A stretch of DNA of 64,000 nucleotides from Longimicrobiales bacterium (lineage in GTDB: Bacteria; Gemmatimonadota; Gemmatimonadetes; Longimicrobiales; Gaopeijiaceae). The notes under the pieces were generated by a model. That model made no database searches. It worked only from the letters and a program-made list of their open reading frames with translations, and was not told the origin of the DNA. Positions 21,500-62,200 of the stretch are shown here, piece after piece. The first letter of the stretch is position 1. Each line of letters starts with the position of its first letter. The translations under genes and the position numbers were made by a program. The stretch covers positions 1,632,001 through 1,696,000 of the forward strand of contig OZ250165.1 of the NCBI GenBank assembly GCA_965238005.1, read 5' to 3'.

Positions 21500-21681
21500 C
21501 TCCAGCCTACCCCAGACTACCGAATAAAGCCCGAGTGTTTGCAGGCATCTGAGGGGCTTCTGCTTGCGCCTCCCGGCCCCCCAATAGGAGATTGACCTCG
21601 GTCTGATCCCGGAGTGCGCCCCTGTCCGATCCAGTTGCCCGCCTTAATGCGGCCCTGGAGGGCCGCTACCGCGTCGAGTGA
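21500..21681 (+). repeat. Kinase leader repeat plus kinase 5' stub (copy 1)
   Basis: Homologous to 45850-46040; encodes SDPVARLNAALEGRYRVE*. Confidence 0.85.
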
Positions 21682-21714
21682 CAGGTCGATCACCATTCAC
21701 CGGGAGGCCACCAG

Positions 21715-22029
21715 ATGAAATACTTGGTTGAGGCTCACGCATCTATGGAGCGAGGCAACGCGCTCGACGCGGAGGGTGGACCAGGTCCAATCTTCGCCCA
21801 CATCGCGGAACGTTTCAAGCCAGAGGCTATCTACGGGAACCCAATGCGACGACAGGCATTCCTCATCGTTGATCTGGACACCGCGGCCGACGTAGCTGAG
21901 CTCATGTATCTCTTCACGTGGGCGACGGGCAATGGGCCCACCTTCACACCGATCATGCCTGCTGAAGCGTTCGGACCAGCAATCGAGAGCGCGTTGAACG
22001 GGCCAGCTATCGGGAGACCGTGGTCGTGA
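21715..22029 (+). CDS. Small hypothetical protein (ferredoxin-like / DUF3303-like)
   Basis: GGAGG RBS; FKPEAIY...AFLIVDL..FTPIM. Confidence 0.7.
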   Translation: MKYLVEAHASMERGNALDAEGGPGPIFAHIAERFKPEAIYGNPMRRQAFLIVDLDTAADVAELMYLFTWATGNGPTFTPIMPAEAFGPAIESALNGPAIGRPWS

Positions 22030-22080
22030 TTGAGCCCGCGGCGGCGCCCACGCAGGTTCCTTGGCCTTGAGCTTTGCCCA

Positions 22081-22215
22081 ATGTCCGACCCGATCACCCG
22101 CCTTAATGCGGCCCTCGAAGGCCGCTACGCCATCGAGCGCGAGCTGGGCGAAGGCGGGATGGCTACGGTCTACCTGGCCGACGACCTGAAGCACGAGGGC
22201 CAGGTGGCTCGCAAG
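22081..22215 (+). pseudogene. Ser/Thr kinase 5' stub (copy 2)
   Basis: MSDPITRLNAALEGRYAIERELGEGGMATVYLADDLKHEGQVARK, then homology ends. Confidence 0.85.
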
Positions 22216-22250
22216 TCGTCGTACACCCTCTTCACACGTGTGACATTTTA

Positions 22251-23714
22251 GTGGGGTTCCGCGAAGTGCGTCGAATCGGGTGGGCGACATGCCTGATGGT
22301 GGCCGCTTGCAGCGGCGGTGACGCGACCTCCCCCGAGCTCCCTGCAGAGGGGCCGGTCGCATCCGTTCGCATGACGCTGGACACGATCACGATGGAGGTG
22401 GGCGTACTTCACGAGGGCCGGGCTACTCCGATCGATTCGCAAGGCGTCACCCTAGACGGTCGTGAGATCACGTGGTCGGTCGACCGCCCCGAGATCGCCA
22501 CGGTAACGGCAGAGGGTACGGTGACTTCTCTGGCAGTCGGCTCGACGACGCTGACAGCCACCAGCGAAGGCATCTCCGGGACGGCGCAGATCGTCGTCGT
22601 GACCTCGGCCTCACAGCCACCCTCGGTATGCGCGTTGGTCGGGAGCGGGCCGGAGAGTTACTGGAAACCCCGCTTCGCCCAATCCTCGCTAGGCGCCCTC
22701 AAGGTCGTGATGCTCTTCGCGGACTTCTCCGACGCCCCGGCCTCCGAATCGACCTCCGATCTCTACGATCTGCTTGTACCGACGGCGCAGGCCTGGTTCT
22801 GGGAGGTCTCCACCGGGAATTTTTCGTTGTCGGTGGACCGTGTCGACCCATGGTTCCGAGCGCCGCAGCCCTCCGGGTCCTACGACTGGAGCACCTTCGG
22901 GGGTCATCACCTTTACATATCGCAGGTGATGGGACTCGCGGATTCGGCCGTCGATTTCAGCCTGTACGACGCGGTTTTCATCGTCGCCAGTCGTGGTGCA
23001 GACCAGGTGGGATCGTCCGCGTTCCGTGCCTTCCCTGGCGGTGGGGTCGTGTTGGACGGACATGAGATCCGTTCCGCCGTCACCTTCGGAGTGGGTATCC
23101 ATAGCACGTCCTCCCCGGACTTCGGTGCGTTCGTCACCGTTCACGAGACCGGTCACATGCTCGGGCTGCCTGACCTCTACCTGTACGACGCCCCCAACTG
23201 GTTGGCGTCGCAGGCGGCGGTGGGCATGTGGGATCCAATGGCGTGGCTCGGTCTCGGCACCCATTTCGTCACTTGGCAAAAATGGAAGCTCCGCTGGCTC
23301 GATGATGACCGCATCGATTGCCTCGGACGTGCGAGCGTCGAGCGCACCGTCTTCCCTTTCGATGCCGCCAGTGGAACGCAGGCCCTCGTGCTCCCCACGA
23401 GCCTTGAAAGCGCAGTGGTGGTGGAAGTGCGAAGGGCTCGCGGATTCGACTCCCGTATCTGCGAGGAGGGCGTGCTCGTTTACTCCGTGTACGTGAACAT
23501 TCCGAATGGCCGTTTCCCCATCAGAGTCCAGTCGGCTCGCCCTGACAGAGACCCCGTGCTAGTTCAGGGCGAGGCATGCGGTCCACTCTATGAAAGCTCG
23601 TTCGGCCTCGGGGACGAACGAATTTCACTGTTCACGGACGAGTCCTCGGGCGTCACGGTGGAGGTGATAGAAGATCTCGGAGACGGGTACCGGGTGCGCA
23701 TCGATCGGAACTGA
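22251..23714 (+). CDS. M6-like metalloprotease with Ig-like (Big_2) domain, lipoprotein
   Basis: HETGHMLGLPDLY zinc motif; VAAC lipobox; ITWS..IATV Big_2 pattern. Confidence 0.88.
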   Translation: MGFREVRRIGWATCLMVAACSGGDATSPELPAEGPVASVRMTLDTITMEVGVLHEGRATPIDSQGVTLDGREITWSVDRPEIATVTAEGTVTSLAVGSTTLTATSEGISGTAQIVVVTSASQPPSVCALVGSGPESYWKPRFAQSSLGALKVVMLFADFSDAPASESTSDLYDLLVPTAQAWFWEVSTGNFSLSVDRVDPWFRAPQPSGSYDWSTFGGHHLYISQVMGLADSAVDFSLYDAVFIVASRGADQVGSSAFRAFPGGGVVLDGHEIRSAVTFGVGIHSTSSPDFGAFVTVHETGHMLGLPDLYLYDAPNWLASQAAVGMWDPMAWLGLGTHFVTWQKWKLRWLDDDRIDCLGRASVERTVFPFDAASGTQALVLPTSLESAVVVEVRRARGFDSRICEEGVLVYSVYVNIPNGRFPIRVQSARPDRDPVLVQGEACGPLYESSFGLGDERISLFTDESSGVTVEVIEDLGDGYRVRIDRN

Positions 23715-23850
23715 CCGGCACTCCAGTGTTGGGGGGGCTGATTCGCTTGCAGCCCGACACGCCTTAGACGCATCTTGTCCACCATGTTCGATCCCATCGC
23801 TCGCCTGAACGCAGCCCTCGAAGGCCGCTACACCATCGAGCGTGAGCTAG

Positions 23851-25452
23851 GAGTCTGCGCCGCAGAACCCTGCGGCGGCTATCTTTGGTGGTAGCGAAGG
23901 CATTGGGAAGGCTTGCGGATCACCGAGGGGGGTGAATGGGAACGACATTTCGACCGTACGATCCGGAGCAGATGTTGTTGCTGCCTCCGGATCTTCGGGA
24001 GTGGGTGTCGGAGGGTCATTTGGCGCACCATGTGAGCGACCTGGTGGACGCGGTGGAGCTGAGCGCGTTCTACGGGCGGTACCGGGGGGACGGGCGGCGC
24101 AACTCGCCGTACGACCCTCGGATGATGGTCAAGGTGCTGATCTACGCGTATGCGACGGGCACCTTCTCGTCGCGGAAGATGGCGAGGAAGCTGGAGGAGG
24201 ATGTCGCGTTTCGGATGCTGGCGGCGGAGAACTTCCCGAAGCACCGGACGCTGTGCGAGTTCCGCAAGCGCCATCTCGGGGATTTCCGGGCGGTGTTTGT
24301 GGAGGTGGTGATGCTCGCGCGGGCCTTGGGGCTGGCGGGGCTTGGCAGGGTGTCGGTGGACGGGACGAAGGTTCGGGCGAACGCGAACAAGCGCAAGGCG
24401 ATGAGCTACGGCCGGATGGTGACCGGGGAGCCTCGGCTGGAGGCGGAGATCCGGGGGCTGTTGGAGAGGGCCGAGGCGGTGGACGAAGCGGAAGACGAGC
24501 GCTACGGCGAGGAAGCATGCGGAGACGAGGTGCCGGAGGAGCTCAAGCGGCGCGAGGACCGGCTGGCGGCGATCCGGGAGGCGAAGGCGCGCCTGGAAGC
24601 CGAGCAGAGAGCGGCGGACGACGCACGGGGCCGCAAGCCGGGGCAGACGCGCAACCCGAAGGGCGGCAGGCCCTACAAGCGGGAGTACGGAGAGCCGGAC
24701 GAGGCGGCGCAGAGCAACTTCACGGACCCTGAGAGCCGGATCATGAAGACGAGTTCGGAGGGGTTCCAGCAGTGCTACAACGCACAGACGGTCGTGGAGG
24801 GGGAGAACCAGCTGGTGGTCGGGGCCGAGGTGACGGACAACGCGAGCGACCAGGGCCAGCTGGTGCCCATGGTCGACGCGGTGGCGCAAGCGTACGGCGA
24901 GACGCCGGCGCAGGTGCTGGCGGACACGGGCTATTGCAACGAGCGGGATCTCGAGGAACTGGAAGAGCGAGACATCGACGGGTATGTGGCGCTGGCCCGG
25001 GAGGGCAAGGCCGCCCCCACGGTTGACAAGGAGGAATATCCGGCGAAAGTCCGCATGGCGGAGAAGCTGGCGAGCGAAGATGGCCGCAGACGCTACGCAC
25101 GGCGAAAGTCGCAGGCCGAGGCGCCCATCGGCTGGATCAAGGAAGTGATGGGCTTTCGACGATTCAGCTTCCGGGGCCTCGAGAAGGTCCGGGCCGAGTG
25201 GACCCTCGTGTGCCTGGCACTCAATGTGAAGCGGCTGCACACCCTTCAGGCGGCATGACTGCACGAGGGTTCACCCGCATCTGCCGGCGCGAGGGCTCTC
25301 GTAGCTCTCTTGCCCCCCCCAACGCATCCATTCCGCTCTCCCGATCCGTCGCAGACACAAGTCCTCAACCTCCCAATCACCCGGATCCGCCTCGCCGCGG
25401 ACGGCTCGATGACCATTCGGCTCAGTCAGCTGTGCTTCTGCGGCGCAGACTC
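23851..25452 (+). mobile_element. IS1182-family element, copy 1
   Basis: 17-bp terminal IR GAGTCTGCGCCGCAGAA; CTAG direct repeats at 23847-23850 and 25453-25456. Confidence 0.92.
23936..25258 (+). CDS. IS1182-family transposase (DUF772 + DDE)
   Basis: YDPRMMVKVLIYAY..SSR, VDGTK, TDPESRIM, ADTGY and FRRFSFRGL motifs. Confidence 0.93.
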   Translation: MGTTFRPYDPEQMLLLPPDLREWVSEGHLAHHVSDLVDAVELSAFYGRYRGDGRRNSPYDPRMMVKVLIYAYATGTFSSRKMARKLEEDVAFRMLAAENFPKHRTLCEFRKRHLGDFRAVFVEVVMLARALGLAGLGRVSVDGTKVRANANKRKAMSYGRMVTGEPRLEAEIRGLLERAEAVDEAEDERYGEEACGDEVPEELKRREDRLAAIREAKARLEAEQRAADDARGRKPGQTRNPKGGRPYKREYGEPDEAAQSNFTDPESRIMKTSSEGFQQCYNAQTVVEGENQLVVGAEVTDNASDQGQLVPMVDAVAQAYGETPAQVLADTGYCNERDLEELEERDIDGYVALAREGKAAPTVDKEEYPAKVRMAEKLASEDGRRRYARRKSQAEAPIGWIKEVMGFRRFSFRGLEKVRAEWTLVCLALNVKRLHTLQAA

Positions 25453-25758
25453 CTAGGCGAGGGCGGCATGGCTACGGTTTTCCTGGCCGATGACCTCATT
25501 GCGCTCTGAGATTGCTCGATCAAGGGGCACGAGCCGATTCCCGGACACCTGCGATCTGGAGACTATAGAAGCATTGTTGGTCGCAGGCGCCGATCTGAAC
25601 GGGGCAATCTGCTTCCGACGCCCCTCAGGATCCGCTACATAGTATACGTAGCGCCAGGGTGTCTGCCGTAATCCCGGCGCTCGTTTTCCCGGCGAGCCTG
25701 GCAGCCCAGGAGATGGGTTCGCCGGGCAAGGAAACCCTTCCGTGAGGCTGCTCGAGCG

Positions 25759-28398
25759 TTACAGGTTTGGCCGTGCCCCAGTCAATGCCGGACCATAGTA
25801 CAAGGAGTTGAACAACAGCATGAAAGTCCCATGAGTTTGAGCGCGGTTCTGGGGTCGAAAACCAAATAGAATGATCTTGCCCTGTCCATAATCGACTTCG
25901 ACCAAAGCCGGCTTGTTGTGTAAGATTTGATCTCCGATAAGACGACCGCTCATGAAAGGGTTGCTGTTGGGATAACTTGCGACGACTCGCAGACCCGATA
26001 GGAGGGCGTTGGTATCTTCTGAATTCATCTCATCGGTGTCGAGGAGTTCAAAGACCGGACTTCCATAGGAGAGCACGTTGGCGGTTTCTCCCATTCCATA
26101 TGCAATGGGATGCGCGTTGTCCACATCGACTTTGAGAATCGCGCTGGGTAAGAAGAACTCTGTGGAAGGATAGCTTCGAGACACATCCCGCAGCGGGACA
26201 TTGAAATGGTCTATGGGTAGCAGGCTAGAAACGTTAAAGGTGACTAGAGTCCCCCCGTCTCGCACAAATTGGAGCAATGCGGCCAAGCCGTTTTCTCCGA
26301 TTCCGCCGGCATATTGAGAGGGGACCGTTCCCTCCCGGTGACCACCGATAATGCGCTCAGAAGAAATATTCGGTAGAACGATGACATCGTATTTTTGATT
26401 GAGTCGTCCAGTGCGGATCTCTGCATCTTGAAGCGTCGTGTAGGGAAACTCCCAATTCTCGAAGATCCACCGGGTCCAGCCCTCGTCCATGTTGGCAACC
26501 CAAGGCTTATAGAGACCCAGCCGCAAAGGCCTCAGCTGCATGAGCCCACCGGGGGAGCGGCCGGACTGTATTTGAAGATTGAACTCTCCTGCTAAGGATT
26601 GGATCTTGCTGCCAATCCCGGTTCCGGAAGCAACGACCGTCCCTGCTGGGTATGTCGTCCCACCAGAAGTGAAGGATGTCACAGCCCACCCGACTTCGGC
26701 ACCCTCCTCCAAAAGCCGGTTGACGGCCCGGTAACTATCCAGGACGTTGTGGTCGAGAAAATAGGTATTCCCGCTGTCAGAGACTCTCCCCGCCGGGGGC
26801 TCCGCCCGTTCGATCGGCGTCAATTGTGCCTCGAAAGGAGAGTCCACCCTGATGGCCTCGACACCCATCTGGTAAGGAAGTGTCCACCCCGTCAAATCAA
26901 AAGTCCCTTCCGGCGGACCCCCCGGGTACTGTCGCCGGTCTGGATAGATCTGCGGGCCAAGCATGTCGATCAAATAAGGTCGATAGGCTTGGGACGCCAA
27001 AGCGACGTAAGTCCCGGCCGGAAATTCCCTGTTCTGGGTCTGGAAGGGTTCCACTGCTTCGTGGAACTCGATTCCACCTGCAATTAGCGTGTTGACCATC
27101 TTGGCAACTGTGTTGGGGTCTTTCTGGGCCTCAGGGATAAGATAGGCATACGGAGCTTCGCTTTCCCCCTTCTCGATGGAGTTCCTGGCCATGCGGTACA
27201 TGTTCAGTAAGTACTTGTCTTTGTGGATGGCCCCCGCCTCCAAGAAGCCAATCGCTGACCAGTAGCCATACTCAACGATGTCTCGCAGTCTCCACCATCC
27301 ACCGGGCCAAGGGCTAGGGTAATTGATGGTCTGGGTGTTCCCTTGTTGTTTGCCCAGTCCACCTCGCCGGCCAAGGTCGGCTGCGTCTTGAAATATCGGT
27401 GTGGCCAAAGAAGCGCTCGCAGCTTCGAAAAGAACGGTGGAAACGTTGTGCCAGAGGGAGTTCGTGTGGATCGCCGACATCCGCCAGTGGTTCCAGGCGG
27501 CGTAATGTATGACGCCTATTTTTCCCTGCTCTTCCAACACTGTTCGCATGTAGGCGCCGGTCAGTTCGATCTCACGGGTGAGTAAGGGGTCCAGAGAGTG
27601 ATGTCGCGGCTCGTATAGAGGTGAAAGAAACAAACGGGCATCCGAATTTCCCATTTGATGCATGTCCATGAAGAGCTGCGGGAACCACTCATGATAGAGG
27701 ATGTCGTTGACATACCTTGTCTCGATTTGAGTGTGCATGAATGAATCGCGGTTGTTATCATGTCCGACGTAATGGTGGTATAGCCAGGGCATCGGCGCGT
27801 TCTCGTAGGGTGTTCCCAGATTCTCGCGATACCAATCGACGATCATGATATTGCCGTCTGGGTTCCAGCTGGGAACGAACAAGAAGATCACGTCGTCCAG
27901 GATGGCCTGGATCTCCGGAGATTCATCAGTTGCCAGGACGTAGCCCAGCTCCGGGGACATCTGAGTAGCTCCGAGTTCGGTGGCATGCATGCTTGCGGTG
28001 ATCAGCGCAATGGTTTTGCCTTCTCCGGCCAACCGACCCGCCTCTTCTTCGGAGACACTGCCTTGGGCGAGTTTCTTGGCAATCTCCTTATACTTTTCTT
28101 TCTGGGATAGATTCTCCGGGGACGAGATGATGGCCAGCAGAAATGGATTGTCCAAAGTGGTCTTCCCTAACTCCACGACCTCGATGCGGTCACTTCCTTT
28201 CCCCAGAAGCTGGTAGTAGTCGACGATCTGGTCCCAACGAATCAATCTGGAATCAGCACCAGGTTGGTGCCCAAAGAATTCAACCGGTGTCGGGATATTC
28301 GCGACGTCGATCACCTGGCTACCGGCCGTCACGGGTAGGAGGAAAGCCAAGGTCAATACGTGAGTGAAAACTGATATTCTCTTTGATAATTTCTTCAC
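25759..28398 (-). CDS. M14 zinc carboxypeptidase-family secreted protein
   Basis: HATE, NPDG, HDNNRD and DMHQM motifs; GTG start probably at 28398. Confidence 0.9.
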   Translation of the reverse strand: MKKLSKRISVFTHVLTLAFLLPVTAGSQVIDVANIPTPVEFFGHQPGADSRLIRWDQIVDYYQLLGKGSDRIEVVELGKTTLDNPFLLAIISSPENLSQKEKYKEIAKKLAQGSVSEEEAGRLAGEGKTIALITASMHATELGATQMSPELGYVLATDESPEIQAILDDVIFLFVPSWNPDGNIMIVDWYRENLGTPYENAPMPWLYHHYVGHDNNRDSFMHTQIETRYVNDILYHEWFPQLFMDMHQMGNSDARLFLSPLYEPRHHSLDPLLTREIELTGAYMRTVLEEQGKIGVIHYAAWNHWRMSAIHTNSLWHNVSTVLFEAASASLATPIFQDAADLGRRGGLGKQQGNTQTINYPSPWPGGWWRLRDIVEYGYWSAIGFLEAGAIHKDKYLLNMYRMARNSIEKGESEAPYAYLIPEAQKDPNTVAKMVNTLIAGGIEFHEAVEPFQTQNREFPAGTYVALASQAYRPYLIDMLGPQIYPDRRQYPGGPPEGTFDLTGWTLPYQMGVEAIRVDSPFEAQLTPIERAEPPAGRVSDSGNTYFLDHNVLDSYRAVNRLLEEGAEVGWAVTSFTSGGTTYPAGTVVASGTGIGSKIQSLAGEFNLQIQSGRSPGGLMQLRPLRLGLYKPWVANMDEGWTRWIFENWEFPYTTLQDAEIRTGRLNQKYDVIVLPNISSERIIGGHREGTVPSQYAGGIGENGLAALLQFVRDGGTLVTFNVSSLLPIDHFNVPLRDVSRSYPSTEFFLPSAILKVDVDNAHPIAYGMGETANVLSYGSPVFELLDTDEMNSEDTNALLSGLRVVASYPNSNPFMSGRLIGDQILHNKPALVEVDYGQGKIILFGFRPQNRAQTHGTFMLLFNSLYYGPALTGARPNL

Positions 28399-28644
28399 TT
28401 GGGGCCCCCTCGATTTGACAGCGGTGCTATACGCAGATCCCATTCCTCATCTGGACCGGCCCAAAGTCACTGGAGCGGATAGGAAAATCAAGGGCCCTAC
28501 GAGGCCGAAGCCGGAGCTAGAGGAGGAGGCCGGATCGGAAGATCGAGGTAGGAGGACGGGACCACAGCGGCCTCGAACACCTCCTGGTTGGGTTCCATGT
28601 GCACATCCTCATGTGCCTCTGACCCGTCCATACACGGGGTTAGA

Positions 28645-28715: not shown

Positions 28716-28793
28716 TGTCCTGCTTTTCCCCAGTGACGCAACAGACGAGTACCCAGTGCGCTGATGGCGCTTTGCGACCTCAGCGCGAGGCAT

Positions 28794-28909
28794 GCTTCTG
28801 CTTGCGCCTACCGGCCCACTCTCGGATGTTGAACGCGGTCTGATCCCGGAGTGCGCCCGTGTCCGATCCAGTCACCGGTCTGAACGCTGCTTTGGAAGGC
28901 CGCTACGCC
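28794..28909 (+). repeat. Kinase leader (promoter part) plus 5' stub (copy 4)
   Basis: CTTGCGCC..GATGTTGA..TGATCCCGGAGTG then VSDPVTGLNAALEGRYA. Confidence 0.85.
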
Positions 28910-30136: not shown

Positions 30137-30150
30137 CTGGTGCCGGACCC

Positions 30151-30272
30151 ATGACCGATCCTATCTCTCGCCTGAACGTAGCCCTCGAAGGCCGCTACGC
30201 CATCGAGCGTGAGTTGGGCGAAGGCGGGATGGCTACGGGGTCTACTTGGCCGACGACCTGAAGCACGAGCGC
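30151..30272 (+). pseudogene. Ser/Thr kinase 5' stub (copy 5), frameshifted
   Basis: MTDPISRLNVALEGRYAIERELGEGGMAT / VYLADDLKHER. Confidence 0.85.
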
Positions 30273-33364: not shown

Positions 33365-33595
33365 CTATAATAGGGAGGCTCCCTCGCATAGTACCGGCCG
33401 CAGGGATTAGGCATGAAAAGGCCCTTTCCGAGTGCGGCACGCTGCTTGCGCGAGCCGATACACCCCACCAACCTCCCGTCGCGAGGCCGTGCCCAGGCCA
33501 AGGTGCCCGCTCGCTGTATCCGCATACAAGGATGGGATGAGCGATGCGTGGATGGGCGATTCACGGCTTCGGATCAATCCCATTGTAGCCCTGTA

Positions 33596-33855
33596 CAGAT
33601 GAGCAAGCCGATAACGGCCCTCTAAGCCACGAGGGTACTCCAGCCTACCCTGGATACCGAATAAAGCCCGAAGACGCTCGGAACACCTTTACGGGCGTCT
33701 GAACGGGTTCAGCTTGCGCCTCCCAGCCCCCTCATAGGACATTGACCACGGTCTGATCCCGGAGTGCGCCCGTATCTGATCGAGTTACCCGCCTCAATGC
33801 CGCCCTCTCGGATCGCTACACCATCGAGCGTGAGCTGGGCGAGGGTGGCATGGCG
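33596..33855 (+). repeat. Full kinase leader repeat plus 5' stub (copy 6)
   Basis: Homologous to 54465-54720 and 45826-46066; SDRVTRLNAALSDRYTIERELGEGGMA. Confidence 0.88.
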
Positions 33856-34567: not shown

Positions 34568-34647
34568 GTCTGCGCTCCCGTGAAATGGTTCGATGAATCC
34601 GGCGAGCCCTACGCGATGTTTGAGAAGAGTGATCTACGGTGTACCGC

Positions 34648-34690
34648 CGACCCTGAGCATCACCCATAGCTTGAGCGCATGGGCATGTAC
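34648..34690 (+). repeat. Kinase downstream repeat R (partial)
   Basis: AGCATCACCCATAGCTTGAGCGCATGGGC, also at 62127 and (variant) 48853. Confidence 0.8.
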
Positions 34691-34754
34691 TCGTGGGACC
34701 TCGGTCGCGAGCAGATTCGCGAGACGGTAGGCGTCGAGGGAGAAGCAACATCGA

Positions 34755-49377: not shown

Positions 49378-49671
49378 GCAGGAGTTCGAGGTGGAGACGG
49401 ATCAGCCAGGGGAGTGGCCGGTGCCGTTTTGTAGTGAGACGGTACGGCGGGTGGTGGTGGAGTAGCTTTCAGCTCTTTGGTTGTATCTCTATAAGGGAGA
49501 TGATGACGACCATCTTCAACGTGCCGACGAATCCACCGAGCGAGCCGTCCATCCGGCACGATGCCGGTGAGCAGCTTAGGGACGCAAGCCCGGTGCGTCA
49601 TCGCGCCTCCTGAACGAGAAGACGGCCACCTCCGAACGATGGGGGTGGCCGTCGCTCGAACTTCGATCCGT

Positions 49672-50922: not shown

Positions 50923-51034
50923 ATGACCTTCCGACCGAAGGTAGTCTCCTAGTCTAGGAAGAAACGCTCGAGGGCCAGCATTTGTGACAAGACGCTTACG
51001 CAGCTCGTACCGGGAGCGGTAACAATGGAGCCAC

Positions 51035-51130
51035 CGCATCGCCCGATCATCGCACCTAGCTTGAGGCGCTTGGGCATTTCATCCTGGGGCAGCTTCGGGT
51101 TTGGCTCAGTTCAGCCGCAGACTCGTACTC
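51035..51130 (+). repeat. Repeat R, diverged copy
   Basis: CTGGGGCAGCTTCGGGTTT shared with 48889; TTTGGCTCAGTTCAGCCGCAGACTCG shared with 62171. Confidence 0.75.
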
Positions 51131-51189
51131 CTTGGCTCGCGGTCCGATGCGAACCCTTCGGTGACACCCGCACGCTCACGACACTGACG

Positions 51190-52253: not shown

Positions 52254-53629
52254 GGTCAAGTCCCGATTTGTGTGTAAAAGCGGAGGAAGCTCCTCGCCTT
52301 CGGCTAGGCTGCTTGGGCGACCTCCTGTTTCTGGAGGAGTGACAGGTCGAGGTAACGCCGGTCGCCCCAGACGTGTGTGGTCCTGAGTGCGACGGCCGTG
52401 ATGAGCCTGAGGGCGCTGGCCCGGTCCGGGAAGGCGCCGGCGGCCTTGATCCTGCGTTTGATCTCGCCGTGCAGCCGCTCGAGGCTGTTGGTGGTACGCA
52501 GCCGGGGCCAGTGCGCCTCGGGGAACGCGTAGAACTGCGTCGCTGCCCCGAAGCCCCGCTCCAGGACCTCCACGGCCTCGGGCAGCTCCTTCTTCCAGCG
52601 TGCGCCGAACTCGCCCAGGAGCTTCTTCGCCTCGGCGAGTCCGGATGTCTGGAAGATCACCGAGACCTCACGCGCCACGCGCTTGCGTAGGCGGTGGGGG
52701 ACCCTCGCCCCCACATTACGCTGCAGATGGACCGTACACCTCTGACGGCGTGCCTCGGGCAGGAAGCGGCGGACCGCAGCTGCCAGGCCTGCGTGCTCAT
52801 CGGCGATCACGAGCTCGACACCGCCGAGGCCGCGGTCCTGGAGTTGCTCGAGGAGCTCCGACCAGCTCTGCTGCGACTCCTCAGCGCCCAGCGTGACGGC
52901 CAGGAGCCGTCGGTGACCCTCAGGGCCCACTGCATACGCCACGAGCGCACTCACGTTCTCGACTTTGCGGGCCCAGCGGGCGTCCAAGAACGTGGCGTCC
53001 AGGTACAGATAGGGGTGAGGCCCCTCGATCGGCGCACGGCGCAGCCCTTCCACGGCCTCGTCGAGCCGTTTTGCCACACGACTCACCGTCGAGCGCCCAA
53101 CACGCTCGCCCATCAGCGCCTCGGTGACGTCGCCCATCTTGCGCTGTGACACGCCGCTCACATACGCCTCGACCATCATCTCGTCGAGCTCGGGGCTCCT
53201 GCGCTGGTAGCGGCCGATCACGTCGGCCGGCGAACCGTTGTCCCGGCTCCGGGGCATGGCGACCTCGATCTGCCCCAGGCTCGTCAGCAGCCGCCTCAGG
53301 TATGTGCCGTTCCTATGGTCCTTCCGGCTTCCCACCCGCTCGAAGCGGCGTGCACCTACCATGGCCTTCAGCTCCTCTTCCAGCACCATCTCGAGCGTCA
53401 GCCGGATCGCGCCTTGAAACAGCTCGCGCAAATCATCGCGTAGCTCGTCTTGCGTGGCCCGACCGATCTCCACAATCTCTTGCATCGGAAGCTCCTCTCC
53501 GGTTCCGAGCCTGCTCTGCAGACCCGGACTCCCGGGTTCATGTGACAGTGAACAACAACAGAGGAGCTTCCGTTTTTCTTTCCCTCCTGTCCAGCTTATC
53601 CGCTTTTACACAAATCTAGGGACACTACC
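52254..53629 (-). mobile_element. IS256-family element
   Basis: Imperfect IRs (GGT..GTCCC..TGTGTAAAAGCGGA); 8-bp duplication CGCTGAAG. Confidence 0.92.
52304..53485 (-). CDS. IS256-family (Mutator) transposase
   Basis: RNGTY.R, YLDA, QRCTVH and RTTNSLER..EIKRR motifs. Confidence 0.95.
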   Translation of the reverse strand: MQEIVEIGRATQDELRDDLRELFQGAIRLTLEMVLEEELKAMVGARRFERVGSRKDHRNGTYLRRLLTSLGQIEVAMPRSRDNGSPADVIGRYQRRSPELDEMMVEAYVSGVSQRKMGDVTEALMGERVGRSTVSRVAKRLDEAVEGLRRAPIEGPHPYLYLDATFLDARWARKVENVSALVAYAVGPEGHRRLLAVTLGAEESQQSWSELLEQLQDRGLGGVELVIADEHAGLAAAVRRFLPEARRQRCTVHLQRNVGARVPHRLRKRVAREVSVIFQTSGLAEAKKLLGEFGARWKKELPEAVEVLERGFGAATQFYAFPEAHWPRLRTTNSLERLHGEIKRRIKAAGAFPDRASALRLITAVALRTTHVWGDRRYLDLSLLQKQEVAQAA

Positions 53630-54295: not shown

Positions 54296-54464
54296 CGTGG
54301 ACTCCTCCTGTCTCCCTCACTACTGAGGTGTCCACCAAAGCGGGTCAACTCCAGTTTTGGAGATCCGGCAGAGGAATCAGGCTGAGAAGATTCATGCCGC
54401 TGAAGCATGAGGCCGTGAGTTCGACTCTAGTCGCTGTCAGCATCGGCAGCGGCGAGTACTCCTT

Positions 54465-54745
54465 CAGATCAGCAAGCCGATAACGGCCCTCTAAGCCACG
54501 AGAACGCTCTGGCCTACCTCGAAACCCGAAGAAGCCCGAAGACGCTTAGAACGTGTTTGCAAGCGTCTGACAGGGTTCTGCTTGCGCCTCCCGGCCCACT
54601 TTCAGATGTTGACCACGGCTGATCCCGGAGTGCGCCCGTGTCCGATCCAGTCGCCCGCCTGAACGCAGCCCTGGAGGGCCGCTACGCCATCGAGCGTGAG
54701 CTGGGCGAAGGCGGGATGGCGACGGTCTACGTGGCCGACGACCTG
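54465..54745 (+). repeat. Full kinase leader plus 5' stub (copy 10)
   Basis: VSDPVARLNAALEGRYAIERELGEGGMATVYVADDL from GTG 54638. Confidence 0.88.
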
Positions 54746-54948: not shown

Positions 54949-57465
54949 TAGGGATGAACCCGAGGACGACGTGCACCGGGGGCGCACGGGATAGCCGACT
55001 GCCCTGTGGATTACTCGGAGAACATGAAGCTGACCGAGAAGCTGGGGAATCTGGTGTGTCCGATATGAGGGGGTCCGCTCTATCCCTGCGGTCTGAGGAA
55101 TTCCTCAGCGAACGGCGGATAGTCCCTCAGCGACTCGAACCGGCGCCACGATACATACGGGTCGTGCCCTTTGGTGGGCCTATATCCAGTTTCACGCAAT
55201 AGCTCCATCGCTCGCTCCCGCTCGCCTAGAGCCGCCTCAATCCAAGCGCGAACAACGAGGTTGTTCGACCAACCGGTTACGCCGACCGCCCTGTAGGCTT
55301 GGTCACGCTGGCCCTGGCTTGCCAACACATACGCCAGCTCCAATGCAGCGTTGTTATGCTCGCTGCTTGGAAAAGGAACGGCCTTCAGTACGTCTTCCAG
55401 GATTGCCTGGGACTCGTCCCAACGTCCGGCTTGACTGAGCAACGTCGCATATACGTAGGACTGGCCGGGATCCTGTCTCCAATCGGAGGTCCTGCCTTCA
55501 AACCATTCCAGGGTATTGTCCGCCAAGTTTGAGGCTGCCGCCGGATCTCCGTGGACGCGAAGCTCCTCGAAAGCCCTACGCGGGATCCCGTTCACAAAGA
55601 GGTTGGTGGGGGAACGTTGGATTTCCTCTGGAATACGGGCGGCCAGTTCCTCGATGCGCCCCAACGCAGCCAAGGTACGGAACTCAACCATTTTCGTCCT
55701 ATATGATTCGGGGTGCAGCTGACGCATGCGGTCGAGGGCCTCGAGCTCCGCCTCGTAGTTGTCGATCTGGTGATAAGCCCGGGTCAGTCTAACCCAATAG
55801 CGAACCCGCTTGCGCAACCATCGGCCTTCAGGATCGGCCCGCGTCAAGAACTCGATTCCCTCTTCGGGGCGGTTGAGCTGGAGCGCAGCATATCCGGCCC
55901 ACAAGAGGAACTGAGAACCGGGAGCGATTTCCACAAACCGACGCATGGCCTCCAGAGCGCCCTGTACATTACGGAGGCCCTTGTGATCACGGCGATAAAA
56001 GGCCAGCTGATAATCCAGGAATAGACGCTCCAGATGGGCCAGTTGAGCACGCCGCCCATTGAGCGCCTGGCGTATGGAATCTCCCGAGTATCCGTATCCG
56101 AAGGCGGCCCAAAGCAACGCCATCGGGAAGTCGGGATCCAGGGCCGCCGCCCGCAGGAAATACGGAACCGCCTCCCCCGTTTTCAGATTCGAGTGGAGCT
56201 CGATTCCCTCGACAAACTCCGCATACGCTTCGAGCGTCGGCGGTTGGCTGGCATTGCGCATCCACTTGGCCAGCCGGGGATCGGTGAGGGTGGCCAGGGC
56301 GGTCATCACCCTGTTGCGTAGGCGCTCGAGGGCGGCAAGGGGAGCATCGACCGGCCCGCGTACCGAATCGATGGTCGCCAGCTCCTCACCCGTGGCGGCG
56401 TTGGTCACGTGTGCGAGGAAGTGCAGACTATCGTCCCGCAACTCGTAGCTGCCCCACACCACCGTCCCCGTCCGATTGGCCCGAGCGAGGGCCTGCAGGT
56501 CGACATGCTCCAGCGAAAAACTCGTGCCTGCACCCACGGGCTCGAGCGACAGCAGCCGCGTGCCGAGGCTGACGACGTCTACGAAGTAGGTATTGGTGAG
56601 GCCCGCCGTGATCAGGTCCGTGGCCATGCGCCCCAAAGCATCGAACGAAGGATCACCGGTTTCATTCTGGAAGATGTCCACCAGGACGCGGGTGGGATCG
56701 AGCGCCGGCGCGTCGCCTCGGCCATTGCTCATGACGCTTGCACCGACCGCCGCGATGGCACCCAGCACCACGATCGCAGCGGCCGCACGCACACGAGTGC
56801 GCCAGGAAGCGCGTGGTTGGGTCGTGATACTCGCGAGCGCCGCGTCGACCGGTTGTTTCGTGAGCGGAGCACTCGGTAGCACGGCTGCGTTCGCCTCCTC
56901 CCTAGCCCGCACCGATTCGATCAGTGCCGTCGTCTCCGGCGCCGGTTCCGCCTCGTAATCCTCGTGTAGCCGCTAAAGCTTGGCGAACGCCTCGTATTCC
57001 CGGATCGCCCCGGCGCGATCACCCAGGCGGTCCAGAAGGTCGATGACACGGCGCAACACGCCCTCGTCGTCGGGAGAAAACGCCAGGGCTCGCCGGCCCC
57101 ACTGCGTCGCCTGCGCCGTCCGTCCCTCGGCTAGGGCTTGCAGAGCGAGTGACCACGTGGCCTCCGCCGCCCGCTGCTCTAATCGCCGCCGCTCATCCTC
57201 CAACCAGCGCTCGAACTCGAGACACCCCGAGAGATGAAAGCCGTCCAACAGTGCGCCGCGATAGAGGGCTAGGAGTCTGCGCCGCAGAAGCACAGCTGAC
57301 TGAGCCGAATGGTCATCGAGCCGTCCGCGGCGAGGCGGATCCGGGTGATTGGGAGGTTGAGGACTTGTGTCTGCGACGGATCGGGAGAGCGGAATGGATG
57401 CGTTGGGGGGGCAAGAGAGCTACGAGAGCCCTCGCGCCGGCAGATGCGGGTGAACCCTCGTGCAG

Positions 57466-58788
57466 TCATGCCGCCTGAAGGGTGTGCAGCCGCTTCACAT
57501 TGAGTGCCAGGCACACGAGGGTCCACTCGGCCCGGACCTTCTCGAGGCCCCGGAAGCTGAATCGTCGAAAGCCCATCACTTCCTTGATCCAGCCGATGGG
57601 CGCCTCGGCCTGCGACTTTCGCCGTGCGTAGCGTCTGCGGCCATCTTCGCTCGCCAGCTTCTCCGCCATGCGGACTTTCGCCGGATATTCCTCCTTGTCA
57701 ACCGTGGGGGCGGCCTTGCCCTCCCGGGCCAGCGCCACATACCCGTCGATGTCTCGCTCTTCCAGTTCCTCGAGATCCCGCTCGTTGCAATAGCCCGTGT
57801 CCGCCAGCACCTGCGCCGGCGTCTCGCCGTACGCTTGCGCCACCGCGTCGACCATGGGCACCAGCTGGCCCTGGTCGCTCGCGTTGTCCGTCACCTCGGC
57901 CCCGACCACCAGCTGGTTCTCCCCCTCCACGACCGTCTGTGCGTTGTAGCACTGCTGGAACCCCTCCGAACTCGTCTTCATGATCCGGCTCTCAGGGTCC
58001 GTGAAGTTGCTCTGCGCCGCCTCGTCCGGCTCTCCGTACTCCCGCTTGTAGGGCCTGCCGCCCTTCGGGTTGCGCGTCTGCCCCGGCTTGCGGCCCCGTG
58101 CGTCGTCCGCCGCTCTCTGCTCGGCTTCCAGGCGCGCCTTCGCCTCCCGGATCGCCGCCAGCCGGTCCTCGCGCCGCTTGAGCTCCTCCGGCACCTCGTC
58201 TCCGCATGCTTCCTCGCCGTAGCGCTCGTCTTCCGCTTCGTCCACCGCCTCGGCCCTCTCCAACAGCCCCCGGATCTCCGCCTCCAGCCGAGGCTCCCCG
58301 GTCACCATCCGGCCGTAGCTCATCGCCTTGCGCTTGTTCGCGTTCGCCCGAACCTTCGTCCCGTCCACCGACACCCTGCCAAGCCCCGCCAGCCCCAAGG
58401 CCCGCGCGAGCATCACCACCTCCACAAACACCGCCCGGAAATCCCCGAGATGGCGCTTGCGGAACTCGCACAGCGTCCGGTGCTTCGGGAAGTTCTCCGC
58501 CGCCAGCATCCGAAACGCGACATCCTCCTCCAGCTTCCTCGCCATCTTCCGCGACGAGAAGGTGCCCGTCGCATACGCGTAGATCAGCACCTTGACCATC
58601 ATCCGAGGGTCGTACGGCGAGTTGCGCCGCCCGTCCCCCCGGTACCGCCCGTAGAACGCGCTCAGCTCCACCGCGTCCACCAGGTCGCTCACATGGTGCG
58701 CCAAATGACCCTCCGACACCCACTCCCGAAGATCCGGAGGCAGCAACAACATCTGCTCCGGATCGTACGGTCGAAATGTCGTTCCCAT
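57466..58788 (-). CDS. IS1182-family transposase
   Basis: Same protein as the other copies. Confidence 0.93.
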   Translation of the reverse strand: MGTTFRPYDPEQMLLLPPDLREWVSEGHLAHHVSDLVDAVELSAFYGRYRGDGRRNSPYDPRMMVKVLIYAYATGTFSSRKMARKLEEDVAFRMLAAENFPKHRTLCEFRKRHLGDFRAVFVEVVMLARALGLAGLGRVSVDGTKVRANANKRKAMSYGRMVTGEPRLEAEIRGLLERAEAVDEAEDERYGEEACGDEVPEELKRREDRLAAIREAKARLEAEQRAADDARGRKPGQTRNPKGGRPYKREYGEPDEAAQSNFTDPESRIMKTSSEGFQQCYNAQTVVEGENQLVVGAEVTDNASDQGQLVPMVDAVAQAYGETPAQVLADTGYCNERDLEELEERDIDGYVALAREGKAAPTVDKEEYPAKVRMAEKLASEDGRRRYARRKSQAEAPIGWIKEVMGFRRFSFRGLEKVRAEWTLVCLALNVKRLHTLQAA

Positions 58789-59034
58789 TCACCCCCCTCG
58801 GTGATCCGCAAGCCTTCCCAATGCCTTCGCTACCACCAAAGATAGCCGCCGCAGAAGCACAGCTGACTGAGCCGAATGGTCATCGAGCCGTCCGCGGCGA
58901 GGCGGATCCGGGTGATTGGGAGGTTGAGGACTTGTGTCTGCGACGGATCGGGAGAGCGGAATGGATGCGTTGGGGGGGGGCAAGAGAGCTACGAGAGCCC
59001 TCGCGCCGGCAGATGCGGGTGAACCCTCGTGCAG

Positions 59035-60357
59035 TCATGCCGCCTGAAGGGTGTGCAGCCGCTTCACATTGAGTGCCAGGCACACGAGGGTCCACTCGGC
59101 CCGGACCTTCTCGAGGCCCCGGAAGCTGAATCGTCGAAAGCCCATCACTTCCTTGATCCAGCCGATGGGCGCCTCGGCCTGCGACTTTCGCCGTGCGTAG
59201 CGTCTGCGGCCATCTTCGCTCGCCAGCTTCTCCGCCATGCGGACTTTCGCCGGATATTCCTCCTTGTCAACCGTGGGGGCGGCCTTGCCCTCCCGGGCCA
59301 GCGCCACATACCCGTCGATGTCTCGCTCTTCCAGTTCCTCGAGATCCCGCTCGTTGCAATAGCCCGTGTCCGCCAGCACCTGCGCCGGCGTCTCGCCGTA
59401 CGCTTGCGCCACCGCGTCGACCATGGGCACCAGCTGGCCCTGGTCGCTCGCGTTGTCCGTCACCTCGGCCCCGACCACCAGCTGGTTCTCCCCCTCCACG
59501 ACCGTCTGTGCGTTGTAGCACTGCTGGAACCCCTCCGAACTCGTCTTCATGATCCGGCTCTCAGGGTCCGTGAAGTTGCTCTGCGCCGCCTCGTCCGGCT
59601 CTCCGTACTCCCGCTTGTAGGGCCTGCCGCCCTTCGGGTTGCGCGTCTGCCCCGGCTTGCGGCCCCGTGCGTCGTCCGCCGCTCTCTGCTCGGCTTCCAG
59701 GCGCGCCTTCGCCTCCCGGATCGCCGCCAGCCGGTCCTCGCGCCGCTTGAGCTCCTCCGGCACCTCGTCTCCGCATGCTTCCTCGCCGTAGCGCTCGTCT
59801 TCCGCTTCGTCCACCGCCTCGGCCCTCTCCAACAGCCCCCGGATCTCCGCCTCCAGCCGAGGCTCCCCGGTCACCATCCGGCCGTAGCTCATCGCCTTGC
59901 GCTTGTTCGCGTTCGCCCGAACCTTCGTCCCGTCCACCGACACCCTGCCAAGCCCCGCCAGCCCCAAGGCCCGCGCGAGCATCACCACCTCCACAAACAC
60001 CGCCCGGAAATCCCCGAGATGGCGCTTGCGGAACTCGCACAGCGTCCGGTGCTTCGGGAAGTTCTCCGCCGCCAGCATCCGAAACGCGACATCCTCCTCC
60101 AGCTTCCTCGCCATCTTCCGCGACGAGAAGGTGCCCGTCGCATACGCGTAGATCAGCACCTTGACCATCATCCGAGGGTCGTACGGCGAGTTGCGCCGCC
60201 CGTCCCCCCGGTACCGCCCGTAGAACGCGCTCAGCTCCACCGCGTCCACCAGGTCGCTCACATGGTGCGCCAAATGACCCTCCGACACCCACTCCCGAAG
60301 ATCCGGAGGCAGCAACAACATCTGCTCCGGATCGTACGGTCGAAATGTCGTTCCCAT
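59035..60357 (-). CDS. IS1182-family transposase
   Basis: Same protein as the other copies. Confidence 0.93.
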   Translation of the reverse strand: MGTTFRPYDPEQMLLLPPDLREWVSEGHLAHHVSDLVDAVELSAFYGRYRGDGRRNSPYDPRMMVKVLIYAYATGTFSSRKMARKLEEDVAFRMLAAENFPKHRTLCEFRKRHLGDFRAVFVEVVMLARALGLAGLGRVSVDGTKVRANANKRKAMSYGRMVTGEPRLEAEIRGLLERAEAVDEAEDERYGEEACGDEVPEELKRREDRLAAIREAKARLEAEQRAADDARGRKPGQTRNPKGGRPYKREYGEPDEAAQSNFTDPESRIMKTSSEGFQQCYNAQTVVEGENQLVVGAEVTDNASDQGQLVPMVDAVAQAYGETPAQVLADTGYCNERDLEELEERDIDGYVALAREGKAAPTVDKEEYPAKVRMAEKLASEDGRRRYARRKSQAEAPIGWIKEVMGFRRFSFRGLEKVRAEWTLVCLALNVKRLHTLQAA

Positions 60358-61154
60358 TCACCCCCCTCGGTGATCCGCAAGCCTTCCCAATGCCTTCGCT
60401 ACCACCAAAGATAGCCGCCGCAGGGTTCTGCGGCGCAGACTCCTAGCGCCTCTTCCTCTTTTCCGCCGTCCAGCAGCAGCTCGAACGCCACGGCGTCGCA
60501 CCACACCATGGCTTCATCGAGCGCGATACGGTTGCCGCTGCCGGTCGCGAAGACGTCGTCCCCGAGATCACGTCGCAGCGATCGAAGGAGCTGGTTCAGG
60601 GCGTCGCGTGCGTGCCGCTCGTCCGACTCGGGCCAGAGGAGCGCGATCAGCGTATCACGCGAGTGTGGGCCGCTCGACTGCGAGATAGGTGAGGAGCGCG
60701 TTCCGCTTGACGTGTGCCAGCGCGATCGCCGAGTCAGAACCGGCATCCTTCCGGACCGCGAGTCCACCGAGCGTGAACAGTCGAATCATTCGTGGGCACC
60801 TCGAATCGGCTCGAGTGCGACACACGAGCCCGCGCACCTGAATAATGCGCTCCCGACAGTCTTTCCCCGTAGCCTACACCCTCGGTGGAAAGAATGCCCA
60901 CTCGGGAAGCAACCACGCAAGTAACGCGGGGCGGACGGGAGGGCGAGAGATGGTCACGAATCACCGGAGAATCACCGGGGAATCAGTAGTCTCGTTCATA
61001 TTGCCTTCCATGTCAGACGCGACCTCGGTCCAGATCGAGGTGCCTGGGCCCAATTCGATCACCGACCCGGGCACACCAAGGGTCGGAGGCGGCGAAACGG
61101 CCATCGTGGCTGAGCTCACCGACTTGTCGCGACACTCGAACGATGGAGGAACGC

Positions 61155-61905
61155 ATGAAGTCTAATCTCACGAAGGTATCGGTCGCCCTCTTGTCCGCGG
61201 CGTTCCTGCTCAGCTGTCAGGAGCAGGGATCGGAGCCGGTGGGGCCGGATGGTCTGGAGATTCAGGCCATGAAGGGAGGCAACGGAAAGGGAGGCAAGGG
61301 AAAGGGAGGCGGCGGTGGCACTACAGCGGCCAGGTTGGACCTAGCAGGCGGCATGCAGGCCCACGGCCCTTCCCGTGGGCGTGAAGGACACCGACACGAG
61401 GCTCACCGTCAACAACGGCGACTTCACGCACGACATCCAGATGAAGTTCATGAAGCCGGACTCAGCAGACTATCAAGTCGGCGATTGCACAGTGATTGCG
61501 GGGGACAACGGGAGCCGTGGCCTCCCCCTCGATAAAGGGGTCTACGGTAATCTCCTGGATGAGCTCACAGCGCCGGTGGACGGCGGGTTCTTCACAATGG
61601 AGTTCCTCAAGAGGAACCTGGGCTTGCCTTCCGGCGATCACCTGCTTCTCGTCGAACGAGACGGCACATTCGAAAGCGGCACACATGGGAACACCCGGAT
61701 CATGCTCGGCCCCACTGATGATGAGGTTGGGGTCGGGCCCGGCACCGTAACGGGCGGGCCCGACACGTTCGTGTTCACCGGCCCGGTCTGGGTGTGGGCA
61801 CACGGAGTGGGCGGCGGCGGCGGCAAAAGGAGCGACCGCATAATAGCCTGTGGGGGGGCCGGCGACAACACGGTGACGGCGACCATCGACCGGTCTCCAG
61901 CTTAA
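61155..61905 (+). pseudogene. Lipoprotein with Gly/Lys-rich linker, frameshift near 61360 (or sequencing error)
   Basis: GGAGG RBS; LLSC lipobox; frame switch joins ...GGMQA to TALPVGVKDTD... Confidence 0.6.
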
Positions 61906-61932
61906 TCAAGAAGATCGGGTTTCCAAACCCCG

Positions 61933-61961
61933 ACCAGAGCCTGGTCCGACCAGGCTCTGGT
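61933..61961. terminator. 13-bp perfect hairpin
   Basis: ACCAGAGCCTGGT-CCG-ACCAGGCTCTGGT after the gene end. Confidence 0.55.
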
Positions 61962-62059
61962 TGACAGAGGGGCGGTTGCTTCGTGGGGCGCCCCTTTTCA
62001 TCCTGGCCTCGGGCGTAGTGCCCCGAGCGCCCCAGCGCCGTTCGGGGCTTTCCGCCGAT

Positions 62060-62200
62060 AACTTCTTCGAGGAGTTGAAGGAGCGGGTGCCGAACTAGCG
62101 TATCAGTCCAGCCATCGCCCAACCTCAGCATCACCCATAGCTTGAGCGCATGGGCGTAGCTTCCTTCGGATTTGGCTCAGTTCAGCCGCAGACTCGCACC
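62060..62200 (+). repeat. Kinase 3' stub (NFFEELKERVPN*) followed by repeat R
   Basis: Matches the C-terminus NWFEELKARVPN* of 45985-48744 and its downstream sequence. Confidence 0.85.

Follow-up and report, generated by a model that had tools for sequence, protein, structure and literature searches.

A 64,000-nt stretch of the genome of a Longimicrobiales bacterium (contig OZ250165.1; G000:C1:1632001-1696000; hereafter the window) carries, between positions 21,500 and 62,200, repeated pieces of the 5' end of a gene for a membrane Ser/Thr kinase, with unrelated genes between them. The original prediction regarded these pieces as anchors of an integron-like gene-capture array. The region is not a dedicated cassette system. 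On balance, it is probably a plasticity zone linked to a tRNA-Arg gene and laden with insertion sequences (IS), in which the truncated kinase 5' ends (i.e. stubs) are scars of illegitimate replacement and the ~155-nt leader in front of the kinase genes has probably been reused as a 5' module. The kinase (i.e. Pkinase plus a PD40 beta-propeller) is hugely paralogous in this bacterial family, each gene having a conserved leader and a conserved 3' trailer (the R motif). In the proposed course of events, its genes would be numerous, dispensable and often island-borne. Kinase bodies would have been removed or replaced by illegitimate recombination (foreign DNA insertion, deletion, IS insertion or IS exchange), leaving the leader and the first 8-55 codons as scars. 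The 5' pieces may persist because the leader, with its ribosome-binding site and start, would serve as promoter and 5' untranslated region for the co-oriented gene behind, and the array itself would have been built by island accretion at tRNA-Arg and IS-mediated shuffling. What is observed is the anatomy of the region, the distribution of the pieces in the genome and the family, the IS copies, the tRNA repeats, the lack of a common junction motif and the pattern of conservation and variation in relatives; that the leader acts as a promoter, that 5' pieces are selected for and in which direction each event ran is what we infer.

The distribution of kinase pieces was examined in the whole genome (G000; a single contig of 4.84 Mb) using a profile built from five kinase paralogues (covering the leader and the initial 420 coding nt). 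A total of 76 matches was obtained, 41 on the plus and 35 on the minus strand, comprising 8 that ran to the end of the model, 36 stubs, 22 leader-only copies and 10 internal pieces. Stub ends were spread over codons 8-55 (n = 36). Only three uninterrupted full-length family members, with open frames of 909-1120 aa, were present whilst five more stop at aa 117-154. The same cut-off kinase ends are therefore found all over the genome, which argues against a special gene-capture machine. Dispersal of the fragments, named beforehand as speaking against an anchored array, is real in that they occur genome-wide and on both strands, yet clustering at this tRNA-linked locus is strong: the window holds 12 of the 76 matches in 33.2 kb as compared to 0.52 expected (Poisson P = 5e-13), and the clustering is thus genuine. 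Smaller co-oriented clusters were observed at 356-361 kb, 2681-2690 kb, 4167-4173 kb and 4326-4330 kb. Two of the scanned loci lie near tRNA genes (i.e. Asn and Ile).

Evidence for illegitimate joining came from the congeners G001 and G002 (the genus is represented by three genomes in the collection). At two paired junctions, the same downstream gene stands behind a leader, with or without eight codons, in G001 and behind unrelated DNA in G000. Both joints are at the same base and orthology stops exactly at the end of the stub or leader, indicating illegitimate joining and not a crossover inside the stub; homology at the stubs as the joining agent, central to the original prediction, thus found no evidence at the two junctions that could be compared. 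For one of these pairs, the breakpoint lies 27 nt before the start of the cargo gene in both genomes, G001 having the leader and eight codons, and microhomology (GCC(T)GA) is present at the joint. G002 lacks both cargo genes. Where the congeners are comparable, the entire upstream context differs and not a small patch. At one locus where G002 has a kinase, ~2 kb of unrelated DNA has taken its place in G000; the flanks are conserved and no stub is left. At the tRNA-Asn locus, the flank is common to the three congeners up to the same point, after which content and stubs are different. Two expectations were borne out, i.e. that kinase 5' ends are found repeatedly where unrelated genes adjoin and that stub-bearing tRNA-linked loci differ in content between congeners.

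Within the window, G001 carries 22040-23851, 25453-25550 and 25551-28512 at 94-97% identity, including the same two stubs, without IS and in another context; the block 22040-28512 is unchanged in G001 and other blocks are rearranged. Most of 28.5-62 kb is non-syntenic in G001 or G002, and no orthologue of the intact kinase above 86% was found in either congener. The genome encodes Ku and ComEC, which would at least permit end joining and the uptake of DNA.

A different explanation, which is possible although we hold it to be unlikely, is homology-anchored capture, i.e. the original idea stripped of its integron-like aspect. Here the conserved ends of the kinase genes (leader and 5' end, and 3' trailer) would serve as anchors, new genes would be placed behind a kinase 5' end by homology-facilitated illegitimate recombination, and double crossovers in both ends would then carry such units between loci or strains. 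In agreement with the original prediction, at least one former kinase unit, bounded by the stub at 33593-33855 and an R motif at 34645, now holds a foreign gene (DUF1326), and a kinase unit with a replaced body is what this explanation would produce. A stub plus 480 bp is common to 42585-44818 and genome positions 2681629-2682259 (97-98.6% identity after removal of the IS), with a left border exactly at the start codon. The ends of blocks orthologous between G000 and G001 often coincide with the edge of a leader or stub, as an anchor model also predicts; examples are 8678 against 8673 at locus L056, 8085 against 8084 and 9743 against 9742 at L057, and an end inside the leader at L049. The microhomology at one joint, the apparent youth or homogenisation of the stubs (described below), the presence of ComEC and the switch from common flank to different content and stubs at tRNA-Asn are also consistent with anchoring. 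However, no chimeric anchor was seen and both of the examined junction pairs are illegitimate at the joint. A 5'-end crossover between two kinases yields a hybrid kinase and not a stub, so that a pre-existing joint of stub and cargo would be needed. The stability of block 22040-28512 between congeners and the replacement of one whole kinase between conserved flanks without a remaining stub likewise count against anchoring, as does the level of paralogue identity, ~80% being low for efficient homologous recombination.

The junctions were also inspected for signs of site-specific recombination. No shared sequence was seen among 46 printed junctions (by eye; no attC covariance model was run). Breakpoints are spread over profile positions 210-352, i.e. 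~150 nt, and are ragged at both ends. No integrase or tyrosine recombinase was detected by Pfam among 120 window ORFs and the 48 PF00589 matches of the genome all fall outside the window; comparison of coordinates placed a PF00589 match within 5 kb for only 2 of 58 fragments genome-wide. The lack of a common junction sequence, the lack of a window integrase and the ragged breakpoints together make an integron-like site-specific system very unlikely, and the integron-like array of the original prediction is accordingly abandoned. A true cassette system with an unrecognised recombinase and a site in the kinase 5' end would fit a co-oriented array upstream of one intact gene, with eight of nine next ORFs co-oriented, but it is close to refuted, as the breakpoints have no common core and one segment of the array is stable in G001. 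A total of 48 PF00589 matches is unusually high for a genome of 4.8 Mb; many are grouped in two stretches, 665-880 kb and 2.73-2.84 Mb.

The kinase pieces of the window were delimited by sequence searches and alignment. Using window 45800-46300 as the 5' query, blastn gave plus-strand matches at 21500, 22082, 23782, 28791, 30137, 33609, 35194, 42587 and 54478, with 75.5-89.5% identity to the query, and two additional weaker pieces at 25462 and 44263. The profile search produced 12 matches, all on the plus strand, and a multiple alignment demonstrated that the retained parts differ between copies, with different break-off points. The ten diverged, plus-strand 5' copies with different break points that had been predicted were thereby confirmed, with identities of 73-89%. 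The full leader and 28-37 codons are kept at 33593 and 54462; a partial leader and 17-21 codons at 21500 and 28783; 43-52 codons without leader at 22077, 30143, 23782 and 42586; and the leader alone at 35183. A tblastn search with the 921-aa kinase indicated that the stubs span only aa 2-52, and no other kinase-domain piece beyond these was found in the window. The R motif is the conserved 3' trailer of the kinase family and was recovered at all four predicted sites (34645-34709, 48807-48912, 51046-51152 and 62107-62254). Of the two predicted sites with the last kinase codons, the one at 62025-62074 was recovered; at ~42555 kinase 3' codons are visible by eye only, as the string TTCGATCAACTGAAAGAGCGGGCTCCAAC, and were not detected by blastn at E ≤ 0.01. 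Names of the unrelated cargo genes, derived from Pfam (120 window ORFs) and NCBIfam, agreed with those given earlier, the M6 assignment falling just under its cut-off. The features of the region are as follows (IS1182-family copies are delimited with CTAG included at both ends).

21500-21686, plus strand: stub A, leader from profile position 54 (13-nt gap) and ~21 kinase codons, in-frame stop
22077-22215, plus strand: stub B, start codon and 47 kinase codons without leader, kept in G001
22251-23714, plus strand: M6-domain/Big_2 protein of 487 aa (Pfam Big_2; TIGR03296 109.4 bits against a cut-off of 110.8)
23782-25498, plus strand: stub C, profile positions 185-257 and 250-295, split by IS1182-family copy 1 at CTAG
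~23847-25456, plus strand: IS1182-family copy 1
25759-28443, minus strand: M14 zinc carboxypeptidase-like protein, in a block 97% identical in G001
28783-28909, plus strand: stub D, 3' part of leader and ~17 codons
29056-29712, plus strand: cyclophilin-type peptidyl-prolyl isomerase (Pfam)
30143-30272, plus strand: stub E, ~43 codons with a frameshift, without leader
33593-33855, plus strand: stub F, full leader and 28 codons
33899-34567, plus strand: DUF1326 protein, between stub F and an R motif
34645-34709, plus strand: R motif (kinase 3' trailer), no kinase codons ahead of it
34755-35180, plus strand: GNAT acetyltransferase (Pfam)
35183-35287, plus strand: leader fragment G, profile positions 100-201, no kinase codons
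38815-40177, plus strand: IS3-family element, up to 21 matching genome copies
40703-40743, plus strand: perfect copy of tRNA-Arg(CCT) nt 1-41 (41 nt, 100%), left border of the apparent island
41492-42523, plus strand: alpha/beta-hydrolase esterase (Pfam, NCBIfam)
42530-44339, plus strand: 3'-end-like kinase codons (by eye), then stub H, profile positions 151-257 and 250-335, split by IS1182-family copy 2
42649-44257, plus strand: IS1182-family copy 2
45730-45975, plus strand: remnant of the end of an upstream ORF (45730-45800), then the ~155-nt leader (45824-45975)
45979-48744, plus strand: intact kinase of 921 aa, Pkinase followed by PD40/TolB-like beta-propeller repeats
48807-48912, plus strand: R motif, 3' trailer of the intact kinase
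49672-51039, minus strand: serpin (Pfam)
51046-51152, plus strand: R motif copy without kinase codons
51640-54330 (borders approximate), minus strand: IS3-family element interrupted by an IS256-family element (transposase 52304-53485)
54462-54744, plus strand: stub I, full leader and 37 codons, next gene on the opposite strand
55080-57293, minus strand: TPR/BTAD regulator pieces, abutting an IS (Pfam)
57253-58860 and 58847-60456, minus strand: IS1182-family copies 3 and 4, abutting
62025-62254, plus strand: 3' stub, last kinase codons (62025-62074) and R motif (62107-62254)
63156-63230, plus strand: tRNA-Arg(CCT), right border of the apparent island

The Pkinase domain of the intact kinase is complete (PF00069, E = 1.8e-50, aa 18-270 matching profile positions 1-256 of 263). 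Searches of G001, G002 and G011 (a genome of another genus) at E ≤ 1e-10 did not recover the DUF1326 gene. The short ORF of stub B (22081-22251) stops at the start of the next ORF. Translational coupling of stub ORF to cargo was considered, as the stub stop lies ≤7 nt from the next called start in ~8 of 27 cases, and was dropped as evidence because one case is an IS transposase and the gene finder picks early starts. At locus L044 (genome 4366470-4368470), the initial ~17 codons of a kinase stub run in frame into a PQQ-dependent dehydrogenase (PF01011, E = 1e-199), representing either capture of a start codon or a chance open frame. A remnant at genome 1704846-1705220, among the few 3' remnants, joins sequence like 47106-47301 to sequence like 48567-48748 with 88-90% identity, i.e. 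an internal deletion of ~1.27 kb. The window also contains dispersed repeats at 35631-36723, 40893-41481, 49380-49474 and 33396-33557 (5, 5, 10 and 5 copies, respectively, at 72-94% identity), some of which adjoin kinase trailers elsewhere in the genome. PADLOC analysis of 29 window proteins returned solely generic kinase-domain matches, for the intact kinase, and the region was not recognisable as a defence island by this analysis.

Linkage to the tRNA-Arg gene involves two partial copies of that gene. In addition to the perfect copy of nt 1-41 at 40703-40743, nt 30-75 are copied (46 nt, 93.5%) at genome 1698635-1698680, 3.4 kb downstream and outside the window. With the perfect copy at its left and the tRNA gene at its right, 40744-63155 looks like a 22.4-kb tRNA-bounded island. 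Inside it are the intact kinase as well as the stubs at 42586 and 54462. The partial copies suggest two integration events with a crossover near the anticodon loop. GC content is 55-62% across 26-62 kb versus 64.8% for the genome. A tRNA-like 3' half is present on the reverse strand between a kinase trailer and the next block at locus L060 (genome 4332140-4332560) and is another possible integration scar.

Kinases of this type were found in 29 of 31 genomes sampled across the family, with up to 68 matches per genome. Most are open frames of ~900 aa, and some are abutting tandem pairs, as for the intact kinases of G011 (2825345 and 2828016; 2139678 and 2142415). Mostly broken kinase copies are an unusual trait of this genus, and stubs as such also occur in other genera. 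Tandem kinases in sister genera are in line with the alternative, already named with the original prediction, that the stubs mark the lost members of an eroded tandem array and that the intervening genes were always there; this alternative is partly right. The stretch 42530-42590 looks like a joint between the 3' end of one kinase and the start of the next, and other clusters in the genome are internally co-oriented, both of which are compatible with erosion. Foreign cargo is, however, left unexplained by erosion alone: the cargo is low in GC and partly strain-specific, the DUF1326 gene lies between a 5' stub and a 3' trailer, and no remnants of kinase bodies are present between stubs. Moreover, the orthologous locus of G011 has the left-flank genes, one intact kinase of 876 aa and tRNA-Arg within ~8 kb, as compared to ~50 kb in G000. 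Pure erosion is accordingly considered very unlikely.

Seven IS copies that had not been noted in the original prediction were identified in the window, i.e. four of the IS1182 family, two of the IS3 family and one of the IS256 family; the splitting of two stubs at the same CTAG, the separable leader and the partial tRNA-Arg copies are likewise new. The IS1182-family element is 1609 bp long and has 43 full copies in the genome with ~99.5-99.9% identity, a near-identity that points to a recent burst. Its assignment rests on NF033551 (370.2 bits versus a cut-off of 270), inverted-repeat ends and a flanking CTAG in 43 of 43 copies. Stubs at 23782 and 42586 are split by this element at the same CTAG and the kinase codons resume after the IS; stub C (23782) is uninterrupted in G001. 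Kinase 5' sequence occurs on one or both flanks of 5 of the 43 copies, although only 28 of 3736 CTAG sites in the genome lie inside kinase 5' pieces. All but ~5 stub ends are not beside an IS. A flank, TGTCCCGTTACC, is common to three or four IS1182-family copies, owing either to repeated use of one target or to exchange among the IS copies.

An alignment of 22 full leaders defined a conserved block of ~155 nt. Ahead of 9 of the 22, the last ~25 codons of an upstream ORF, encoding a hydrophobic C-terminal helix, are conserved; no intact copy of this ORF (remnant at 45730-45800) was seen in the window. The leader is separable from the coding stub and a module of its own. Its 22 leader-only copies, with ~81-85% identity over ~150 nt, are located upstream of non-homologous genes, e.g. 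at 4328726-4328877 (83.1%/154 nt), 2688145-2688284 (83.6%/152 nt) and 2849892-2849738 (84.6%/156 nt). The genes behind them encode four adenylate/guanylate cyclases (one fused to a kinase), an FHA-GGDEF protein, an alpha/beta hydrolase, a sortilin/BNR protein, a creatininase, an amidase, M28, M20 and S9 peptidases and an AMP-binding enzyme. At locus L042 (genome 4328898-4332146), a 1082-aa protein with a class III cyclase, a kinase domain and PD40 is encoded behind the leader, and G001 has a 91% identical copy of this protein with a different upstream gene. The leader is present in three genera, with ~40 other sites in the genome and further copies in G001, G002, G011 and G039 (like G011, from another genus). 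Among the 30 best leader-query matches in G011 and G039, a sample that is not random with respect to kinases, 29 gave a profile match, comprising 5 intact kinases, 14 stubs and 10 leader-only pieces; plausible starts of unrelated genes were found ~0-50 nt behind the stubs and leader-only pieces. An inverted repeat (AGACGC..GCGTCT) is present in the leader, and some paired changes in it are visible by eye; the consensus fold did not pick up this hairpin. A structured RNA was rejected as an account of the leader on the basis of a consensus fold of -6.5 with almost no compensatory changes in 22 copies.

The leader could also be a propagating mobile promoter or MITE-like repeat that sometimes takes the first kinase codons with it, many stubs having been born short, but we give this little credence. 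Leader-only copies upstream of non-homologous genes, the occurrence in three genera, the variation of both copy ends, as for copied patches, and agreement with the published sequence definition of putative mobile promoters (PMC3575422) speak for such propagation. Against it, no terminal inverted repeats or target duplications were seen by eye among the 22 leader copies (no formal search was made), the 'sharp' 3' border (profile 173-177) owes part of its sharpness to the divergence of two leader variants at this point, at least nine stubs begin at the start codon without leader, and the whole upstream context differs between congeners and not a small patch. A bolder reading, which we consider doubtful, is that the leader and first codons form a portable 5' expression module behind which ORFs have repeatedly been installed in at least three genera. 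It is equally doubtful that the ORFs land ~0-50 nt from their own starts without a recombinase, anchored by the conserved ends of the family, and that the 40-70 kinase genes per genome constitute a distributed capture platform, i.e. a functional analogue of the integron without its enzymology.

Several results weigh against the explanation of the region as a plasticity zone with illegitimate-replacement scars and a reused leader, or fail to support it. The predicted co-orientation of the next ORF with the stub was reproduced (eight of nine, from crude gene calls, with two of the eight being IS transposases) but is not special given a genome baseline of 69.6% (4627 crude gene calls, from a gene finder that favours early starts): genome-wide, 27 of 36 stubs (P = 0.31) and 19 of 22 leader-only copies are followed by a co-oriented gene, and the combined 46 of 58 is weakly above baseline (P = 0.068). 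A scan of 45600-46100 for sigma-70 promoters and terminators found no site, the leader had no Rfam match at E ≤ 1 (the whole window gave tRNA only at the gathering score), and the consensus fold of the 22 leaders was weak with nearly no covariation. Stub ends nearly cease after codon 55, a limit that is left unexplained and that random deletion would not predict. Identity among the five paralogues stays at ~0.75-0.8 well beyond codon 55; without a drop at this codon, a model in which homology limits the breakpoints was rejected. At the same settings, blastn gave 65 matches for the 5' query versus 21 for the 3' query, and simple two-sided erosion would leave more 3' remnants beside cargo than the few observed. 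Differences from consensus by codon position were 7.3/5.4/23.6% for stubs and 7.6/4.0/30.2% for intact genes; the stubs look young or homogenised, and a fast ongoing process fits better than old scars. The 55-codon limit, the scarcity of 3' remnants, the young stubs and the coincidence of block borders with leader and stub edges keep homology-anchored capture alive and also allow for a leader that propagates itself.

Reuse of the 5' end takes place on a striking scale, with tens of copies per genome in three genera. If the leader does drive expression, a large and dispensable paralogue family would offer ready-made landing pads for new genes and a simple route from horizontal transfer to expression without a dedicated recombinase. 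The case is useful even if the leader has no such role. For annotation, these genomes contain short 'kinase' ORFs by the dozen that represent scars and not genes. For regulation, the leader is common to kinases, cyclases and secreted hydrolases, an unusually large shared-upstream family that may define a regulon. For genome scanning, gene-fragment arrays beside a tRNA gene can mimic cassette systems.

Among known systems, integrons share with the region a co-oriented run of unrelated short genes split by a recurring sequence. Unlike an integron, however, the region has no IntI, attC-like site, fixed crossover point, attI or Pc, and what recurs in it is a ragged-ended fragment of a gene. Of the features that define an integron, neither IntI at the array nor a recurring attC-like site was found, and the region is therefore not one. 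The pilS and vls loci are silent arrays of partial-gene cassettes involved in antigenic variation. They resemble the region in having partial, diverged and co-oriented copies near a single gene (one expressed gene in pilS/vls, one kinase gene here), but the copies here correspond to aa 2-52, i.e. the conserved glycine loop and lysine region and not a variable part, have unrelated genes between them and are spread genome-wide. Homology-facilitated illegitimate recombination, reportedly described by de Vries and Wackernagel and by Prudhomme et al., would be similar in that an illegitimate joint with microhomology lies beside a stretch conserved in donor and recipient; one joint with GCC(T)GA was found here and no anchor-side crossover was identified in the two junction pairs. 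IS expansion with pseudogene formation is matched by the 43 near-identical IS1182-family copies, some in stubs and some flanked by kinase sequence on one side, but not by the stub ends, most of which (all but ~5) have no IS beside them.

A literature search on kinases and insertion sequences of the taxon and on mobile promoters, far from exhaustive, found no description of 5'-end reuse at such a scale. Putative mobile promoters are defined by upstream identity of ≥80% over ≥50 nt before non-homologous genes, their way of moving is unknown and most families are pairs (PMC3575422, a commentary on Matus-Garcia, Nijveen and van Passel 2012). The leader-only copies have this identity and length; unlike those families, the leader is present in tens of copies per genome and in three genera, many copies carry the first 8-55 codons of the source gene, and its promoter activity is putative. 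As in tRNA-linked islands, the region adjoins a tRNA gene (tRNA-Arg) with partial direct copies on both sides, is low in GC, deviant in composition and dense in IS, and varies in content between congeners; it differs in having no integrase in the window and in that its internal landmarks are pieces of a protein gene and not att sites. Of the known systems, a tRNA-linked genomic island is the nearest match, with probable promoter reuse and IS-driven decay in addition.

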